Below are positions 2,324 through 59,231 of a stretch of DNA of 64,000 bases, piece by piece. Under the pieces are notes generated by a model that was given only the letters and a program-made list of their open reading frames with translations, was not told where the DNA came from and made no database searches. A program made the position numbers and the translations under genes. Every line of letters starts with the position of its first letter. Position 1 is the stretch's first letter. This DNA comes from an uncultured Bdellovibrionales bacterium (lineage in GTDB: Bacteria; Bdellovibrionota; UBA1018; CAIPTA01): positions 5,563-69,562 of the forward strand of contig CAZTCD010000007.1 of the NCBI GenBank assembly GCA_964612065.1, given 5' to 3'.

Positions 2324-3274
2324 ATGGCACGGACGCCGAAGCTCAGGCACGCATTTCTTTGGATCTCCTTCTTTTTGCTCTCCTCCTGCGGAAAGTATGA
2401 CCGCATTGATGACGGTGGTTTCACCACTGTGGAGATCGGGGGAGGGCAGTCGCATAACCTTCTCACCGCAAACGTGCTCACCTACGGCATCCTGATTTAC
2501 GCCTATAGTGATACCTACGTTACGAATCTGAAGCTTTCCGACGAAAGCCAGCTGGCGCATATCACCCTGCCGAACGGCACCTATCAGTTCTATGCTTTCG
2601 GCCATGCCTTCGACTTCGGCTCTTTCGCATCCAATCCCATTCGATGTGCTGTATCCGGCTCCATCGCTCTAACCGGTACGGCCCAAACCGTGGCGTTGGA
2701 TTTCCGGGAGTCGAATTGCGCGAACGGCGCTTTCACGTCTGGCGGCAACCATCTGGATACCAATACCGGGTCTACGATCGCCAACTCGGGAGCCATTTTC
2801 GCGCAGCTGGAATACATTCACTGTGGAACGGCGGCTGGAACCGCGCTTTCCACCGTGGCCGCCACGCAGGATTGTTCCACCGGCTCAGGCATCTCAGCCC
2901 CTTGGGCGGTGGGCTCCAACGCCCGCTTCCAGGCAGTGGTGCCGATTTTCAAGCGCTCCGGAAACGTAACTCAGGTGATCGGCGAAGCTTACCGAAGCGC
3001 CTGCAGTGGCAGCGCCTACGTGGATACCATGGGTTCCCAAGCAACCTCGCTGCCAGTACGGTTTCCCTCCGGTGTGTCTACGCAGCCAGGAGTGTTCCCG
3101 ATTGCTTTTGAAACCTTCACTGAAACGGACTGTAACTCGGTACCCGTGGCTCGCCACGAGTTTTACAATGGCTTGATCTTCGGCCCCACGAATGGGGCCT
3201 CGCTGGGCAGGGCGCTTTACTACACCAGCGGCTCGGGTGTGGGCCGCCTTCGCCTGTATCTCCGGGAGCCTTGA
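2324..3274 (+). CDS. putative lipoprotein
   Basis: N-terminus MARTPKLRHAFLWISFFLLSSCGKYD has a signal peptide with lipobox LLSSC. The mature part is Gly/Ser/Thr/Ala-rich. It ends 6 nt before the next gene. Confidence 0.7.
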   Translation: MARTPKLRHAFLWISFFLLSSCGKYDRIDDGGFTTVEIGGGQSHNLLTANVLTYGILIYAYSDTYVTNLKLSDESQLAHITLPNGTYQFYAFGHAFDFGSFASNPIRCAVSGSIALTGTAQTVALDFRESNCANGAFTSGGNHLDTNTGSTIANSGAIFAQLEYIHCGTAAGTALSTVAATQDCSTGSGISAPWAVGSNARFQAVVPIFKRSGNVTQVIGEAYRSACSGSAYVDTMGSQATSLPVRFPSGVSTQPGVFPIAFETFTETDCNSVPVARHEFYNGLIFGPTNGASLGRALYYTSGSGVGRLRLYLREP

Positions 3275-3280
3275 GGCATA

Positions 3281-5605
3281 ATGTTTCCTTGGATCAGCGG
3301 CTCCCGGCTGCTCTGGCTAGTGCTGGGAGCGTGCGCCCTTTTCCTGCCCTTTCACCAGCTGCTTTACTCCGATAGAGCTCTTTTTTTCCGGGATCTCTCC
3401 CGCGATCTGCTCGTGCAGAAAAGCATCTGGGCGGAAGCGGTGAGAGCGGGAGAGGGGATCCCTCTCTGGAACCGCTTCGCGCTGGGAGGCACGCCTTTCT
3501 ACACGATGATCGTGGGCTCTCCGCAGCATCCGCTGAACTTTCTTTTTTTGCTTTTTTCCCGGGACGAGGCGCCCCGTGCTTTGGCCTGGTACCTGTGGAT
3601 TCACTATCTGGCGTTCGGAGCGGGGGCCTGCCTGCTTCTCAGGTCCTTCCGTTTGCGGTGGCCTGTTGCGGTTATGATGGCGGTTAGTGCAGCCCTCTCG
3701 GGATTTTTACTGAGCGCTCACAGCCTTGGGCATCTGGTGGCTTCCGCGGTGGCGGTGCCTTGGTATTTCTATTTCACCCGCACCTACTTCCGGAGCGCGA
3801 GGCCGCTTTATCTTCTGGCCGCCAGCGCGATGATCGCCTGGCCGATCTATGCGGGCGATCCCCAGTTCACCTATGTGCTGGCGGTGATCTCGGGCTATCA
3901 GTTTTTAAGACTCCGCCTCTGGCTGCCGTGGCTTGGCCTTGGTGCTTTGGCATTTCTCGCATCGGCAGCGCAGTTGCTGCCTACTGCGGCCGAGATCATG
4001 GCCTCGGAACGCCTGCAGATCGAGACCACTGAGCTGCTCTATTTTTCATTTCATCCCTCCCGGCTGGCCGAGCTCTTCTTCCCTCTTTTCTTCGGCAACC
4101 GCTATGGGGTGGAGAGCTTCTGGGGGGCTGATCTCGTTAATTTCCATTATAAACATCCATTCATATTTTCTGTTTATCTAGGGATACTGAGTCTATTTTC
4201 CCTGTCGCTTTTGCCGCTCCTTTTTCGGCGCGGAAAGATTGTTCGGCGCGCGCTTCCCTTGGCGGCGCTGGTGCTTGCCGGCTTTTTCCTTGGCATGGGC
4301 AAGTTTTTTCCGCTTCCCCTTTACGAGGAGTTTTCCCGCTGGATTCCCCTCTTTGGCCTGTTCCGCTATCCGGAGAGGTTTCTGTTCTGGCCGCTTTTTG
4401 CACTTTGGCTTCTATGCTCGCTGGCTCTGGAGCGAGGTTTTCGTTTGCCAAAAATCTTTCTATCGCCGGTCTATGTTTTTTCTTTCGCGAGCGCCCTGGC
4501 CGTTAACGCCGCGGCCTGGTGGTTCCTGGAGGTGCCTGGCCCGGCCAAGGACGCTCTGTTTGCCACCCTTTGGAAGGCGGGGGCGTTTCTGATCGCTGCG
4601 CAGGTTCTGCCGCGAATGCAGCGATCCTCCTGGCTTCCGTTGGTATGCGCCGTACTGTTGGTTTATGAGCTGTGGGCGGTGCAGTCGCGCCTGATCTGGT
4701 TTCAGAGCAAGCATATGGCGGATGGAAACCGCTACCAGCTGGTGAGCTCCATTCGCGGGAGCTTGGCCTCGAGAAAAGCAGAAATAGAAAGTGGCGCCGC
4801 TTTTCGCCTGGGCACGGAGAAGCTCGGCAGATTCGAGTTCAACGCCGCAAGGATGGACCATACCGTGGCCACCACTTTCAATCTGTTCGATAGCCTGGCC
4901 GCCAATACCGCGGGATTTTTCGGCATTGAGGACGTTTCCGGCTACTTTTCTTTTTTACCTTCCAGCCGATTGAAGTTCTGGAAGGCCATGGTGCGGCCCG
5001 ATTCGGGCGGGGGCGATATCCGCTTTTATCATGATCTGCTGGGCGTATATTACACACCCGTTCGCAATCCCGACGACCAGAGAATCCGCCTGGAAGTGAA
5101 CGAAACTGCGCTTCCCTATCTCTACGTGCCGGAGCGGGTTTTATTCGACGATACTTTCGATTCCACTCTCCACACCTTGCGGGCCGGAGAGTTTCGCCCG
5201 AACAGAGATGCCGCGCTCACGGGATTGGCTCATGAGGCGGTGGAGCAAAGAGGCGAGCGAGGCAACTTTCGCATCCTCCGGCGGGATTCCAGGGCATTGG
5301 ATTTCGAGTTCACGCCAGGGCCGGGTCCTGCGAAGCGCTACCTCGTGGTGAGCGAGAGCTTCCACAGAGGCTGGAGGGCTTGGGCGAGTGGGGTCGAGCT
5401 ACCACTTTGGACGGCTAACGGATGGAGTATGATCACGGAACTGGACAAGCTCGAGCCGGGCAAGGCGGTGACGGTAGAGATGCGCTTTCAGCCTCCTTGG
5501 CTGTGGCCAGGCCTTTTGCTTACGGCCTCCTGGTGGCTGATCGTGATTCTGGCTTCTTTCGGGAGGCTTCGGTTTCTATCTACTTTGCGAGGTACTCGCA
5601 GCTGA
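3281..5605 (+). CDS. YfhO-like polytopic membrane protein (putative extracytoplasmic glycosyl/polymer transferase)
   Basis: 774 aa with many hydrophobic helices over the first ~470 aa. The soluble C-terminal part ends ...ESFHRGWRAWASGVELPLWTANGW...RFQPPWLWPGLLLT plus a terminal TM, a pattern I associate with the YfhO family. The family call is from memory only. Confidence 0.6.
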   Translation: MFPWISGSRLLWLVLGACALFLPFHQLLYSDRALFFRDLSRDLLVQKSIWAEAVRAGEGIPLWNRFALGGTPFYTMIVGSPQHPLNFLFLLFSRDEAPRALAWYLWIHYLAFGAGACLLLRSFRLRWPVAVMMAVSAALSGFLLSAHSLGHLVASAVAVPWYFYFTRTYFRSARPLYLLAASAMIAWPIYAGDPQFTYVLAVISGYQFLRLRLWLPWLGLGALAFLASAAQLLPTAAEIMASERLQIETTELLYFSFHPSRLAELFFPLFFGNRYGVESFWGADLVNFHYKHPFIFSVYLGILSLFSLSLLPLLFRRGKIVRRALPLAALVLAGFFLGMGKFFPLPLYEEFSRWIPLFGLFRYPERFLFWPLFALWLLCSLALERGFRLPKIFLSPVYVFSFASALAVNAAAWWFLEVPGPAKDALFATLWKAGAFLIAAQVLPRMQRSSWLPLVCAVLLVYELWAVQSRLIWFQSKHMADGNRYQLVSSIRGSLASRKAEIESGAAFRLGTEKLGRFEFNAARMDHTVATTFNLFDSLAANTAGFFGIEDVSGYFSFLPSSRLKFWKAMVRPDSGGGDIRFYHDLLGVYYTPVRNPDDQRIRLEVNETALPYLYVPERVLFDDTFDSTLHTLRAGEFRPNRDAALTGLAHEAVEQRGERGNFRILRRDSRALDFEFTPGPGPAKRYLVVSESFHRGWRAWASGVELPLWTANGWSMITELDKLEPGKAVTVEMRFQPPWLWPGLLLTASWWLIVILASFGRLRFLSTLRGTRS

Positions 5606-10000: not shown

Positions 10001-10963
10001 TCAGGCCAGATCGCCTTGTTTCCAGCCGCGAGCGTTCATCCATTTTTTGAATTCGTCGACGGGATAAATCTTCTGAGCGCTCCAGTCGGGGCCCACCAAC
10101 TCCTCGCGATGTGGGGCGAGGCCATGCGTGCGGTGAATTACGATATGCGGATCGAGATGGCGGAGGAAATGGGCGGCTTTCTCGAAATACTCTTCCATTC
10201 CGAGGAGTTCAAAGTCTCCGGCTTTGAAGCGGCGCTCGAGTTTTGTCTTCTTGAGCACGTGGAGGTGGTGAAGTTTCACCCCGTGCACGCCCATGCGGCT
10301 GAGAGTGCGGGCGCTCTCCTCGAGGTGCCCGAGCGTTTCCATCGGAGCGCCCAGGATCAGGTGAGCGGAAACATCGAGCTCTTTGGCTCGGCCTTCCTGC
10401 TTGAGGCGGTGGCTGAAAGCCAGGGCTCGTTCCAGGGAGTTCAGGGCCGTGGCGGCATCGTGCCCGCGTTCGAAGAAGCTGAGAGCTTCGTCCTGGAGGC
10501 TCTGCACGCCGAGTTCGAGCTGCACGTCTACCCGGTCGGAATAGGAGGCGAGTACTTCGAGAACCTCATCGGGCAGGCAATCGGGGCGGGTGCCCACGGC
10601 GAGGCGAACCACGCCAGGGAAAGCCACGGCTTCATCATAACGGGTTTTGAACTCGTGGATCTCTTCGTGGGTGGTTGTATAGCTCTGGAAATAGGCCACA
10701 AAATGCTCCGCCCGGAACTTTTGCCGGATGCCGCTCGCGGCGGCCTCCAGCTGCAGGCGCACGGGAAGCTCTTTGCGGAGGTTGGCGAAGTAGGAGGCGG
10801 ACCCGTGCACATCGCAGAAGGAGCAGCCTCCCCAGCCTTTTCTCGGACCGAAGGTGCCGTCGCGGGTGGGGCAGGTTTGGCCGCCGCTCACGGTGAGCTT
10901 ATAGGTTTTGCCTCCGTAGCGCTCCACGAGGCTATCGGAATAGGTTCTGTAGGGAGCTTGCAC
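10001..10963 (-). CDS. TIGR01212-family radical SAM protein (YhcC-like)
   Basis: The N-terminal block KLTVSGGQTCPTRDGTFGPRKGWGGCSFCD is characteristic of this family. Length is 320 aa. Confidence 0.85.
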   Translation of the reverse strand: MQAPYRTYSDSLVERYGGKTYKLTVSGGQTCPTRDGTFGPRKGWGGCSFCDVHGSASYFANLRKELPVRLQLEAAASGIRQKFRAEHFVAYFQSYTTTHEEIHEFKTRYDEAVAFPGVVRLAVGTRPDCLPDEVLEVLASYSDRVDVQLELGVQSLQDEALSFFERGHDAATALNSLERALAFSHRLKQEGRAKELDVSAHLILGAPMETLGHLEESARTLSRMGVHGVKLHHLHVLKKTKLERRFKAGDFELLGMEEYFEKAAHFLRHLDPHIVIHRTHGLAPHREELVGPDWSAQKIYPVDEFKKWMNARGWKQGDLA

Positions 10964-12825: not shown

Positions 12826-14814
12826 TTAGTCCTCATCGCTGCTCGTGGCTTGCTGCTGGGCTCTGTAGGCAGCGGCCTTTCGTTTCCAGTAGGCGGCCTT
12901 GGCTTCCGCCAGGGCCTCATCCGAGTATTTCACCGGATCCACTTTCTGAAGGTATTTTTTGATCACAGCGAGCGCAATCGGAGCCGCCGAGCTCCCGGAG
13001 CAGCCGTGCTCCACCACCACACTCACGGCGATCTTGGGGTTTTCCACGGGGGCGAAGGCCACGAATATCCCGTTGTTGCGGAAGCGCCTTTCCATGTGCT
13101 TGCAATCGAGATCGCGGGTTTCATTGGTGATCTTCACCACCTGGGCCGTGCCGGTTTTTCCGGCCGCGTCGATGCCGGGAATAAAAGATCCGTGAGCGGT
13201 GCCCTGATCGTGGCCGATCACATATTGCAGGCCTTTGCGCACGAGCCGGTTGGTGTCGGCGCTGAATTTGGTCTGGCTGATCACTTCGGGCTCGGTTTTG
13301 TCGAGAACGGAGCCATCCGGGCCTTCCACGTATTTCAGGAGGCGGGGGCGGTAAACGGTGCCACCGTTGGCGAAGGAGGCGATCATATTCGCCATCTGCA
13401 GAGGGGTTGCGGTGAGGGCGCCCTGGCCGATGATTACGGAGAGGGTTTCCCCAGGGTACCAGTCGGCGTTCTGCACTCTTCGCTTCCAGGCCACGTCAGG
13501 CACCAGGCCCGGGATTTCTCCCGGCAGCTGGATTCCGGTACGGGAGCCGAGGCCGAGGCTGCGCGCATAGCGGGCGAGCACGTCGATATCCATCTGGGTG
13601 CCGAGCTTGTAGTAGAAAACGTCCACGGAGCGATAGAGGCTCTTCACCACATCGGTGGGCCCGTGGCCGCCTTTTTTCCAGTCGTGGAAGGTGTGGGAGC
13701 CGAACTTGAAGGTGTAACCGGCGTTGATTACGAGATTCTCGGTGATCAATCCCTCTTCCAGGCCCGCGATGGCGGAAACCATTTTGAAGGTGGAGCCGGG
13801 CGAATAGTGGTCGAGGATGGTTTTGTCCCGGAGGGGCTTGTCGGGATTGGTGGAGAGCTGCCTCCAGTATTCAGGCTTGATCCCCACGGAGAACTCGGCG
13901 GGATCGAAGCTCGGCCAGGAGAGCATGGCCAGCACCTCTCCGTTGTTCGGGTCGATGGCCACTACGGAGCCTGTTTTATTGTCTTTGACGAAGGTTTCAG
14001 CAGCGGTCTGCTGGAGGTCCTCGTCGATCGTGAGCACGATATTCTTTCCGGGCTCCGCCGGTTTCGGCGGGATCTCAAAGATGCTTTCGCGGCCGGCTCT
14101 TTCGTTGATGCGTTTTTTGCGGCCGAAGGCGTCTACCTCCACGAACTCCACGCCGTCGGTGCCGCGAAGCACATTTTCCCACTGCATCTCGAGGCCGCTC
14201 TTTCCGATGCTGTCGCCCTGCTGGTAGAAGCGCTTGGCATTGCGGTTCACGCGGGGAAGCTCGTCGGCATCGATCTCGGAAATGTAGCCGAGAAGGTGGG
14301 AGCCGATGAGGCCGTTCACGTTGGTGCGTCGGATTCCGGTGGCCACTTCCACGCCGGGCAGGGAGTTCTCCTCCATTTCGATGAGGGAAACTTCGTCCAT
14401 GGTGAGGTTCTTCTTGATCACCACGGGCTGGAAGGAAGGCTGGTTGCGCGCCTTCTGGAGGGTATCGTTGATCGATTTCGGATTGGAGCGGACGATCTTG
14501 GCCAGCTTCTCGATCGTAGCCTCGCGCTGGGCGGGAGAGGCGGCCCGGAAATACTGGGGCGTGATCGTAACGTTGAAGGTGGGATGGTTGTCGAGAAGGA
14601 TGCGGCGGTCGCGGTCGAACACCATCCCGCGCGGTGCCTCGATCTTGATCTTCTTGAGGCGGTTCTCCTCGGCACTTTGCTTGAATTCCTCGCCCTTGAG
14701 GATCTGGAGGTACCAGAGGCGAAGGAAGAGGATGGAAGCCATCACGATCAGGATGCCGTAGAGGTAACGGAATCTGTCCTGGTATGCCTGGAGCTGTTCA
14801 TTTTGCCCAATCAT
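12826..14814 (-). CDS. mrdA: penicillin-binding protein 2 (elongasome transpeptidase)
   Basis: N-terminal TM, then the PBP dimerisation and transpeptidase modules with STFK, SVD/SxN-type and KTGTA motifs. It sits in the mreCD-mrdA-rodA context. Confidence 0.95.
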   Translation of the reverse strand: MIGQNEQLQAYQDRFRYLYGILIVMASILFLRLWYLQILKGEEFKQSAEENRLKKIKIEAPRGMVFDRDRRILLDNHPTFNVTITPQYFRAASPAQREATIEKLAKIVRSNPKSINDTLQKARNQPSFQPVVIKKNLTMDEVSLIEMEENSLPGVEVATGIRRTNVNGLIGSHLLGYISEIDADELPRVNRNAKRFYQQGDSIGKSGLEMQWENVLRGTDGVEFVEVDAFGRKKRINERAGRESIFEIPPKPAEPGKNIVLTIDEDLQQTAAETFVKDNKTGSVVAIDPNNGEVLAMLSWPSFDPAEFSVGIKPEYWRQLSTNPDKPLRDKTILDHYSPGSTFKMVSAIAGLEEGLITENLVINAGYTFKFGSHTFHDWKKGGHGPTDVVKSLYRSVDVFYYKLGTQMDIDVLARYARSLGLGSRTGIQLPGEIPGLVPDVAWKRRVQNADWYPGETLSVIIGQGALTATPLQMANMIASFANGGTVYRPRLLKYVEGPDGSVLDKTEPEVISQTKFSADTNRLVRKGLQYVIGHDQGTAHGSFIPGIDAAGKTGTAQVVKITNETRDLDCKHMERRFRNNGIFVAFAPVENPKIAVSVVVEHGCSGSSAAPIALAVIKKYLQKVDPVKYSDEALAEAKAAYWKRKAAAYRAQQQATSSDED

Positions 14815-14817
14815 CTG

Positions 14818-14995
14818 GCGCGCTCCACAATGCCCAATCTCATCGTTGCTCTCGGCCCGCCCCGTTCCGCCGTACCTTCAGTACGGCTCACGGCTGCGCG
14901 CCTTCGAGCGCCTCGATCTTGGGCATTCTGAAGCGCGCCGCAAGAATCAAAGGCGCAAAGTGCGCGCTCCATAATGCCCAATCTCATCGTTGCTC
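14818..14995. repeat. intergenic repeat element between mreD and mrdA: two 34-bp direct repeats plus an internal inverted partial copy
   Basis: 14818..14851 (gcgcgctccacaatgcccaatctcatcgttgctc) and 14962..14995 are identical at 33/34 positions. 14921..14938 (gggcattctgaagcgcgc) is the reverse complement of the first 18 nt of the repeat at 16/18 positions. A further 7-bp stem hairpin lies at 14869..14887. Confidence 0.85.
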
Positions 14996-15007
14996 CGGGC
15001 GAGCTCA

Positions 15008-15559
15008 TCAGAACTCCTCTCCGGTCAGCTCGCGTGCTTCCGATTCGCGCTCGATATGCGTCCACTGGTCGAGGGAGCGCACGAGGTGGAATACAGGGCG
15101 GGCGAAGATTCCGAGGGAAAGCAGGAAGGGCAGCGAATACTCGAGGGAGGAGCGCCAGGTGTTTCCGAGAATGCCGTATCGCTGGGCGAGGATCAGGAAC
15201 GCCACCTTCCAGATCAATCCTCCCGCTACGGCCAGCATGATGGAGGAAAAGGTGGTGGCCACGAGGAACATCTCTTTCGTGAAGAGGATCGCCATGAACA
15301 CGGCGAGGTAGCAGGCCGTGAGAATCCCGGCCGGCGCGCCCGAATGGATCTCCGCCACTCTGCCGATCACGATCATCAGAGCCGCGCCCTCGAAGAAGGA
15401 GCGATGCAGGCTCAGGTAAACGGAAACCAGCAGCAGCAGATCGAGCTCAAGCCAGGAAAGGGCCGAAAGCTTCAGCACCACGCTCTGCACTGCCGTGAGC
15501 AGAATACAGAGAATGATCACGAGCACGAAATTCAGGGCTCGGTACAACTCATGAATCAT
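15008..15559 (-). CDS. mreD: rod shape-determining protein MreD
   Basis: 183-aa polytopic membrane protein directly downstream of mreC, with a 4-nt ATGA overlap. Confidence 0.8.
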   Translation of the reverse strand: MIHELYRALNFVLVIILCILLTAVQSVVLKLSALSWLELDLLLLVSVYLSLHRSFFEGAALMIVIGRVAEIHSGAPAGILTACYLAVFMAILFTKEMFLVATTFSSIMLAVAGGLIWKVAFLILAQRYGILGNTWRSSLEYSLPFLLSLGIFARPVFHLVRSLDQWTHIERESEARELTGEEF

Positions 15560-33379: not shown

Positions 33380-33457
<78 letters not shown>

Positions 33458-54150: not shown

Positions 54151-54154
54151 GGAA

Positions 54155-54285
54155 CCTAGTCGCTGAATTCCGCTAAGGAAGCGGGGGACCCATTTTTTGG
54201 GGCGAATCGCTCGAAAGAGCGTAGGGCTAAACTCTTCGGCCCGAGTCCGACAGCTAACCTCGTAAGCGTCGAAGAGGAGATCTTT
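54155..54285 (+). promoter_or_regulatory. c-di-AMP riboswitch (ydaO/kimA class)
   Basis: The conserved blocks appear in order: GTCGCTGAATTC..., GCGGGGGACCCA, GGGGCGAATC, GGCCCGAGTCCGACAGCTAACCTCGTAAGCGTCGAAGAGGAG. This is near-identical to the conserved core of the B. subtilis ydaO leader as I remember it. It lies directly upstream of a KimA homologue. Confidence 0.85.
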
Positions 54286-58727: not shown

Positions 58728-59231
58728 ATGGAAAAGAACCGTCCGGAATCCAAAGCTGCGGAAAGCTCTGCCTTGAAAGGCACGGGGCCGGACCTTCGCT
58801 TTTTCACCTCGCTCGAAGTGGCTGAGATCCTCAAGATGCACCCCCAGGTGATTACCCGGAAGCTGCAGGCGGGAGAGATCGCCGGCTACAAGCTCGGCAA
58901 AGACTGGCGCGTGAGCGAAAGTCAGCTCCATGAGTTTCTTGCCCGCCACTCCAATCAGCGCTCCGCGGATCCCGGGGAGAAAATCGTGGGCAACTTTATC
59001 GTGAACGGTAAGCTGAAGAGCATTCCGGTTCAGCGCTCGAAGCGCCTCGCCGTGCTACGGCACCTGGTGGATCAGCTCGATTCCGCCCGTGTTTACGACG
59101 AGTCCGAAATCAATGATTTCCTTTCCGCTTTCCATTCCGACGTTTGCACCCTGAGACGCGAGTTCATCATCAACAAACTCATGGTGCGGAAAAACGGAAA
59201 GTACAAAGTTTCCCCATCCCTTCACAACTGA
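58728..59231 (+). CDS. DNA-binding protein: excisionase/MerR-type HTH + DUF2087 domain
   Basis: FFTSLEVAEILKMHPQVITRKLQAGEIAGYKLGKDWRVSESQL is an excisionase-family HTH. The C-terminal RLAVLRHLVDQL...YDESEINDFLSAFHSDVCTLRREFIINKLMVR is DUF2087-like. Confidence 0.7.
   Translation: MEKNRPESKAAESSALKGTGPDLRFFTSLEVAEILKMHPQVITRKLQAGEIAGYKLGKDWRVSESQLHEFLARHSNQRSADPGEKIVGNFIVNGKLKSIPVQRSKRLAVLRHLVDQLDSARVYDESEINDFLSAFHSDVCTLRREFIINKLMVRKNGKYKVSPSLHN

Follow-up and report, generated by a model that had tools for sequence, protein, structure and literature searches.

The 193-nt spacer that separates mreD from mrdA in a 64,000-nt stretch of DNA from an uncultured Bdellovibrionales bacterium (the whole of this stretch is referred to below as the window) is very probably not a leader native to the operon. 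We regard it instead as a strain-specific, small mobile hairpin repeat like those known as MITEs (miniature inverted-repeat transposable elements), present as one full copy and a stump, in which the full copy masks the Shine-Dalgarno (SD) sequence of mrdA. The preliminary description of the window had offered two readings of the spacer, a dedicated RNA switch or attenuator and an insertion resembling a repetitive extragenic palindrome (REP) or MITE, and it is the second that is borne out: the spacer is absent in eight related lineages, is polymorphic among contigs that encode an identical MreD, is homologous to a dispersed repeat elsewhere, and is represented by partial copies on other contigs of the same metagenomes. 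A dedicated switch finds no such backing, since the junction is not conserved in relatives, Rfam returns no match, and the two alternative folds are far from balanced.

The geometry that gave rise to both readings is real. Read on the minus strand, the spacer contains two direct copies of a 34-mer, GAGCAACGATGAGATTGGGCATT(A/G)TGGAGCGCGC, at 14995..14962 and 14851..14818, which lie 144 nt apart, differ at a single A/G position, and are placed as originally described. In a repeat search the direct repeat grows to 39 nt (92% identity, with the same spacing of 144), and the 34-mer pattern, allowing up to three mismatches, has two matches against none in 100 shuffles. The middle segment at 14938..14921, said to pair with either copy, can do so, and its inverted arm reaches 14939..14919: one inverted pair joins 14919-14939 to 14817-14837 in the downstream copy (I1; 21 nt) and the other joins the same left arm to 14962-14981 in the upstream copy (I2; 20 nt), each at 90%. 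The downstream 34-mer ends 3 nt ahead of the mrdA ATG (14814), a start codon set by the N-terminus MIGQNEQLQ that is kept in relatives, and it contains the sole SD-like motif before that ATG, GGAG at 14826..14823. The small hairpin reported at 14869..14887 is also present. These three complementary segments are the right arm, the left arm and again the right arm of two adjacent elements, one complete and one reduced to its right-hand end, and where two such neighbours meet, their junction supplies the alternative hairpin upstream; the right/left/right order of arms therefore yields a switch-like geometry, as tandem arrays of the AT-rich family described below would also give. The second of two conserved blocks in the element includes the ATG of a short upstream open reading frame (uORF), and the stump carries both an SD sequence (GGAG, 14996..14993) and an ATG (14987). 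The linker and the end of the stump together form a terminator-like hairpin (14967..14953, five pairs, followed by CTTTGATTCT), a weak match that we note and on which we place no weight.

Comparison with relatives shows what the junction looks like when the element is absent. MreD homologues were followed as a graded series across Bdellovibrionota metagenome bins, and in eight related lineages (L026-L031 and L069-L072; MreD 84-90% identical) mreD and mrdA are only 2-4 nt apart, as in TTCTGA GCCG ATGATCGGGCAAAATG, with the mrdA SD sequence located within the 3′ end of mreD; the ancestral junction was thus one without a spacer. A ninth lineage (L032; MreD 80%) has at the same junction an unrelated, GC-rich and hairpin-rich insert of 262 nt (10553-10814), of which a second copy lies inverted 3 kb away between rodA and a DDE transposase gene (13945-14052; 80% over 108 nt). 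The mreD-mrdA junction has accordingly been struck independently by intergenic repeats, and it seems to be a repeated landing site.

Variation within the species is equally informative. Among contigs whose MreD is 100% identical, two carry the 193-nt spacer (L022 and L023) and two a 49-nt spacer (L024 and L025) with the layout TGA TGAGCTCGCCCG-34mer-CAG ATG and thus a single 34-mer. The alleles differ by 144 nt, exactly the spacing of the direct repeat; the short allele retains the 39-nt stump, and no fully empty site was observed within the species. An assembly artefact as the source of the 49-nt allele was considered and set aside on an argument from word length: no more than 23 identical bases are common to the copies, which is under the 31-mer words assumed for Logan's assembler. 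Slippage deletion is classically favoured where direct repeats surround a strong palindrome, and such a deletion between the 34-nt repeats flanking the hairpin would leave the 49-nt allele; alternatively, a full element may have been gained beside a pre-existing stump.

The element also has relatives far from this operon. A metagenome scan that used the second conserved block, the 19-mer GCAACGATGAGATTGGGCA, as its pattern (the first block, CAAGATCGAGGCGC, was not part of it) returned 36 loci, some 22 of which belong to a single AT-rich repeat of approximately 143 nt that is spread over many different contigs. About a dozen are coding matches (including L039 and L046), several of which translate to N-D-E-I-G, which we read as a likely HAMP-type motif, and the occurrence of the 19-mer within coding sequence accounts for the matches that are not repeats. 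The AT-rich copies hold CAAGATCGAGGCGC as well, 56 nt upstream of the 19-mer compared with 58 nt in the window, and they align to the window element over its whole length. It is this whole-length alignment that provides independent support for homology; a covariance model (R1) matches the window at 14823-14933 with 79.8 bits, a score that is partly circular because the seed alignment contains the window copy. The copies fold into one and the same rod, which runs from an outer stem through a GA/GA internal loop, UCG/UGA, a GC clamp, a stem and a second purine loop to a further stem and a variable apex. Across 12 copies, 93.8% of cells are paired, and double changes occur at 9 pairs compared with 1.8 in shuffles.

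The size and ends of these repeats are those of MITEs. The window element measures 123 nt with 21-nt arms at 90%, and its relatives of about 143 nt have a 17-nt terminal inverted repeat, GTTTCCATCCGAAAACG. Direct repeats of 6-7 nt (TAGTTA, TATTTA, TACACTA) flank the AT-rich copies, exactly in 4 of the 15 copies scored and with one mismatch in 7 more, and the copies sit between open reading frames (ORFs) in either orientation. In two places (L038, ~2270-2310; L042, 1165-1421) copies follow each other head to tail with a 6-nt TAGTTA between them, which suggests insertion beside existing copies. The family is abundant in some genomes of Desulfobulbales type. For the organism represented by L064, each run holds 54-87 contigs on which the element stands between different flanks, which amounts to dozens of copies, and the RNase G of this organism shares 78-81% identity with proteins that bear the names Desulfocapsaceae or Desulfobulbaceae. 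The main AT-rich family probably has a Desulfobacterota host as well, though on a weak signal. On the L064 contig, two copies on the minus strand (3008-3115 and 3829-3936) surround a 181-aa lipoprotein-like ORF that has no Pfam match, and both copies and the ORF run in the orientation of the neighbouring genes.

The genome of the window itself appears to hold further copies. In four sludge metagenomes, a second locus matches 14831-14875 and 14890-14925 at ~90% identity between different flanks and has an apex of 59 nt instead of 14 nt (14876-14889), and a third locus in the same four metagenomes matches 14837-14871 only, again at ~90% identity and with different flanks. The depths of the main contig and of the two other loci co-vary (9.0/10.7/8.1, 10.0/9.7/9.5, 4.3/4.4/2.7), from which we infer at least three element loci in this genome. 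A covariance search, a check that the preliminary description had suggested, located no further copy in the loci of relatives or elsewhere in the window. Together with blastn, the search of the window and of the relatives' loci left E values of 0.085 and 0.21 as the best remaining matches, the latter belonging to a weak R1 match at 58935-59015 on the minus strand (15.6 bits), a short GGCGC...hairpin resemblance that is probably due to chance.

Wider searches place the family outside the described repertoire. A scan of a collection of genome contigs for TTGGGCATTNTGNAGCGCGC gave 21 scattered single matches compared with ~17 estimated by hand from its 18 specified bases; none came from this organism, whose species representative is either absent from the collection or without this motif. 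Scanning metagenomes for a flank of the second locus, and viral contigs for the two-block pattern, gave 0 matches each, short-query BLAST with the 30-nt flanks of the other two loci gave noise only, and an AT-rich copy had no blastn match among plasmids. Rfam 15 contains no family matching the window region at E values up to 10, and both there and at six loci with AT-rich copies it returned only miRNA noise. A full-text literature search for the core sequences recovered only an unrelated primer, and the core does not appear in the supplements of the Thiomargarita MITE paper (PMC4853749). The repeat family is therefore undescribed, being neither in Rfam nor found in the literature searched.

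Folding of the minus-strand RNA supports the masking arrangement that was originally proposed. At -106.2 kcal/mol (z = -6.4), the fold of the 211-nt RNA is far beyond those of its shuffles, none of which reached the same stability (0/200). With folding constrained on a 261-nt mRNA segment, the ensemble energy is -130.9 kcal/mol when the middle segment pairs with the downstream copy and -119.4 kcal/mol when it pairs with the upstream copy, against -131.0 kcal/mol without constraint. The SD-masking fold, favoured by ~11.5 kcal/mol, would thus be essentially the only state at equilibrium in these models. The claim that downstream pairing occludes the mrdA SD sequence agrees with a predicted unpaired probability of at most 0.002 for GGAG in the 193-nt allele; the corresponding predictions for the four bases in the 49-nt allele are 0.88, 0.88, 0.82 and 0.27. 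In the long allele, the full-element hairpin would therefore form and bury the mrdA SD sequence. During transcription the upstream hairpin would form first, but the downstream copy, whose pairing part is the same, could then displace the upstream one. One metatranscriptome covers the region, with only a 225-nt contig that lies inside mrdA. Any regulatory effect of the masking is a by-product of insertion and not the work of an evolved switch.

Masking of this strength raises the question of how mrdA is expressed. PBP2 is needed for rod growth, so translation of mrdA must still occur, and for this reason we propose that coupling to mreD is relayed by the uORF. The stump ATG at 14987 opens a frame 20 nt past the mreD stop in a start region predicted to be accessible, the uORF SD sequence and AUG having predicted unpaired probabilities of 0.2-0.9. 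Ribosomes would start at the SD sequence and ATG brought in by the element shortly past mreD, read 58 codons through the hairpin and stop on the mrdA ATGA, and in this way the relay would sustain PBP2 synthesis. In the 49-nt allele, the same frame is reduced to 10 codons (MRLGIVERAR), and the unrelated insert of L032 has GGAG-5nt-ATG opening a 19-codon frame that likewise ends on the mrdA ATGA. That two unrelated junction inserts both keep an SD/ATG frame ending on ATGA hints that coupling is under selection. Judged by sequence and predicted structure, a uORF relay of translational coupling may be what operates here.

Several points weigh against this account. The window copy (14817-14939) shows no target-site duplication around it, and the fetched loci revealed no transposase with the same termini. 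A conserved interior combined with termini that vary from subfamily to subfamily would also be unusual in MITEs driven by a transposase. Copy number is low, with one copy in the 64-kb window and none found by the R1 model in ~110 kb of relatives' loci, and the two other loci attributed to this genome are known from their matching pieces and 30-nt flanks. The history of the alleles is not straightforward either: at the A/G site (14972 in the upstream copy, 14828 in the downstream copy), the window has A...G and the contigs of another study G...A, and the 49-nt alleles have A (L024) or G (L025). This reciprocal swap between strains fits neither deletion nor gain simply, and the 193/49-nt change may have run in either direction. 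As for the relay, a stop-free in-frame stretch of 144 nt (48 codons) has a chance expectation of ~7%, and the proposal is built from sequence and folding.

A different view of the same repeats holds that selection acts on the core and not on the termini, so that the mobile hairpin would carry a functional single-stranded module, either an RNA motif or ribozyme or a single-stranded DNA (ssDNA) site. We think this unlikely, and we are just as doubtful of its fuller form, in which the core CAAGAUCGAGGCGC ... GCAACGAUGAGAUUGGGCA with its tandem G-A loop, common to Bdellovibrionota and Desulfobulbales-type repeats that have diverged in their stems and termini, is an undescribed RNA or ssDNA module that defines a new class of mobile hairpin and is not a mere relic of transposase binding. 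If it were true, the core would be a candidate protein-binding motif, processing site or ribozyme. The 14- and 19-nt blocks are identical between the Bdellovibrionota copy at 60% GC and copies at ~40% GC, with stems that co-vary; the arms of the core are conserved yet non-complementary and enclose a tandem GA/GA loop; the termini vary from one subfamily to the next; and in 12/12 copies the forward strand, richer in G-U pairs, folds ~10 kcal/mol better than the complement. Taken together, these features speak for selection acting on a single strand, whether RNA or ssDNA, although they could also reflect an internal protein-binding site. The core sequence is compatible with a kink-turn in our own reading only, but the variant copies prefer plain UCG/UGA pairing to the kink-turn register. 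Moreover, covariation drawn from three or four independent lineages is thin, and there is no sign of a discrete RNA in RNA runs that were read as contigs, which carry no transcript ends. The flanking duplications indicate ordinary double-strand transposition, and these, together with the mixed orientation of copies relative to neighbouring ORFs, favour an ordinary DNA transposon derivative. Specific structures proposed for the core were set aside: the kink-turn register, because L064a and L064b fit plain UCG/UGA pairing better, and resemblances to hammerhead, twister and hairpin ribozymes, because key residues are missing and Rfam has no match.

The element could also be a palindrome of the type mobilized as ssDNA by a tyrosine HUH transposase, either a REP element moved by a REP-associated tyrosine transposase (RAYT) or a palindrome-associated transposable element (PATE) derived from IS200/IS605. 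The strand asymmetry of the hairpin, its intergenic position and the lack of a target duplication around the window copy would suit such an origin, but the AT-rich relatives end in inverted repeats and are flanked by direct repeats of 6-7 nt, and HUH transposition leaves no such marks. The copies also measure 123-143 nt compared with 20-40 nt for REP, have no GTAG head and differ from REP in sequence and, in this genome, in their low copy number; the fetched loci showed no Y1 transposase gene, with no search there aimed at one, and a RAYT gene was likewise not sought. We consider an origin of this type improbable. An evolved RNA switch or attenuator, in which the middle segment would pair now with the upstream copy, now with the downstream one, and so set mrdA translation relative to mreCD, is the least credible of the explanations considered and very improbable, because its genuine attractions (a real three-segment complementarity, a downstream pairing that conceals the only mrdA SD sequence, an upstream hairpin that would form first in transcription and a weak terminator-like hairpin with a U-rich tail in the linker) are set against absence of the spacer from eight related lineages, of which the gaps are 2-4 nt and the one spacer beyond them an unrelated 262-nt insert, polymorphism among contigs with identical MreD, folds that differ by 11.5 kcal/mol, identical copies that make strand displacement easy, the lack of any Rfam or aptamer match, and the presence of the same element at unrelated loci of other genomes in either orientation to neighbouring ORFs.

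As a MITE-like intergenic hairpin repeat, the feature is of a known kind, and its conserved asymmetric interior with variable ends is unusual among MITEs. The Correia elements of Neisseria (CREE/NEMIS) are likewise non-autonomous, hairpin-forming repeats of ~100-150 nt with terminal inverted repeats; they are gene-adjacent, co-transcribed and strain-variable, and they can alter the expression of the downstream gene. They bear no sequence relation to the window element, however, and duplicate TA, carry a promoter and IHF sites and occur in hundreds per genome, whereas the window element has ~3 copies in its host, no duplication at its site and a conserved part that lies inside and not at the ends. 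ERIC/IRU and REP/BIME of enterobacteria are similar in being transcribed, strain-variable intergenic imperfect palindromes that lie in operons and alter mRNA structure, but REP is 20-40 nt long and tied to RAYT transposases, ERIC is a 127-nt family confined to enterobacteria and vibrios, and none of them has the two conserved blocks; the Rfam and sequence searches found nothing of them here. A translational riboswitch or attenuator resembles the spacer in having three segments, the middle of which pairs with either neighbour, and in sequestering an SD sequence by one of these pairings, whereas the window feature lacks conservation at the locus, an aptamer and balanced energetics and arises from adjacent repeat copies. 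Finally, the ATGA arrangement recalls stop/start coupling, since mreD and mrdA of the relatives are 2-4 nt apart and the uORF in the window ends in the ATGA of mrdA; the difference is that in the window coupling would be relayed through an ORF derived from an inserted repeat.

Coordinates of the mreD-mrdA junction, the inserted element and its parts in the window (all on the minus strand)
Feature	Position	Strand	Basis or remark
mrdA (PBP2, 662 aa)	12826..14814	-	TIGR03423, E 1.7e-195
mreD (183 aa)	15008..15559	-	Follows mreC, with a 4-nt overlap with mreC
Complete hairpin repeat element, 123 nt: left arm, conserved core, apical hairpin, right arm	14817..14939	-	
Left arm (the middle segment of the spacer)	14919..14939	-	Pairs with 14817-14837 or 14962-14981
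Conserved block 1, CAAGATCGAGGCGC, 14 nt	14908..14921	-	CAAGATC and GGCGC invariant between window and AT-rich copies
Conserved block 2, GCAACGATGAGATTGGGCA, 19 nt	14831..14849	-	Invariant in 12/12 aligned copies
Apical hairpin GCCGTAC-TGAAG-GTACGGC	14869..14887	-	Sequence and minimum free energy fold
Right arm with mrdA SD sequence (GGAG 14826..14823)	14817..14837	-	Inverted repeat
Stump of a second element (right-hand 39-nt copy)	14962..15000	-	Direct repeat D2, 39 nt, 92%, spacing 144
Linker from stump to full element, 22 nt	14940..14961	-	Sequence
Open frame of 58 codons, stump ATG to a TGA overlapping the mrdA ATG (ATGA)	14811..14987	-	Translation

The identities of rodA and mreC were confirmed with NCBIfam, and the 183-aa ORF, which has no NCBIfam match, is called MreD on the basis of its position and of the name that a source gives to a homologue. 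At its 5′ end (first 25 nt, 14788-14812), mrdA resembles the right arm of the element (14815-14839), with 18/25 positions identical (72%; direct-repeat family D1); the stretch TTGGGCAAAATGA in mrdA recurs unchanged in the right arm of the AT-rich family, and codon 2 of mrdA is ATT in the window and ATC in relatives. The resemblance may reflect similarity of the target or conversion. Elsewhere in the window, a cyclic di-AMP riboswitch of the ydaO/yuaA type lies at 54151-54283 on the plus strand (106 bits, full length), and a tRNA gene at 33381-33454 on the plus strand (70.6 bits).

What looked like a novel leader of the mre-mrd operon thus becomes an explained feature, a strain-variable mobile repeat, and it illustrates how trivially a palindromic repeat, once two copies lie side by side, can produce the geometry of a three-segment switch. 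The junction is also a natural experiment, in which a very stable hairpin over the SD sequence has come between the members of an essential and normally translationally coupled pair, mreD-mrdA, and in which the long and short alleles coexist.

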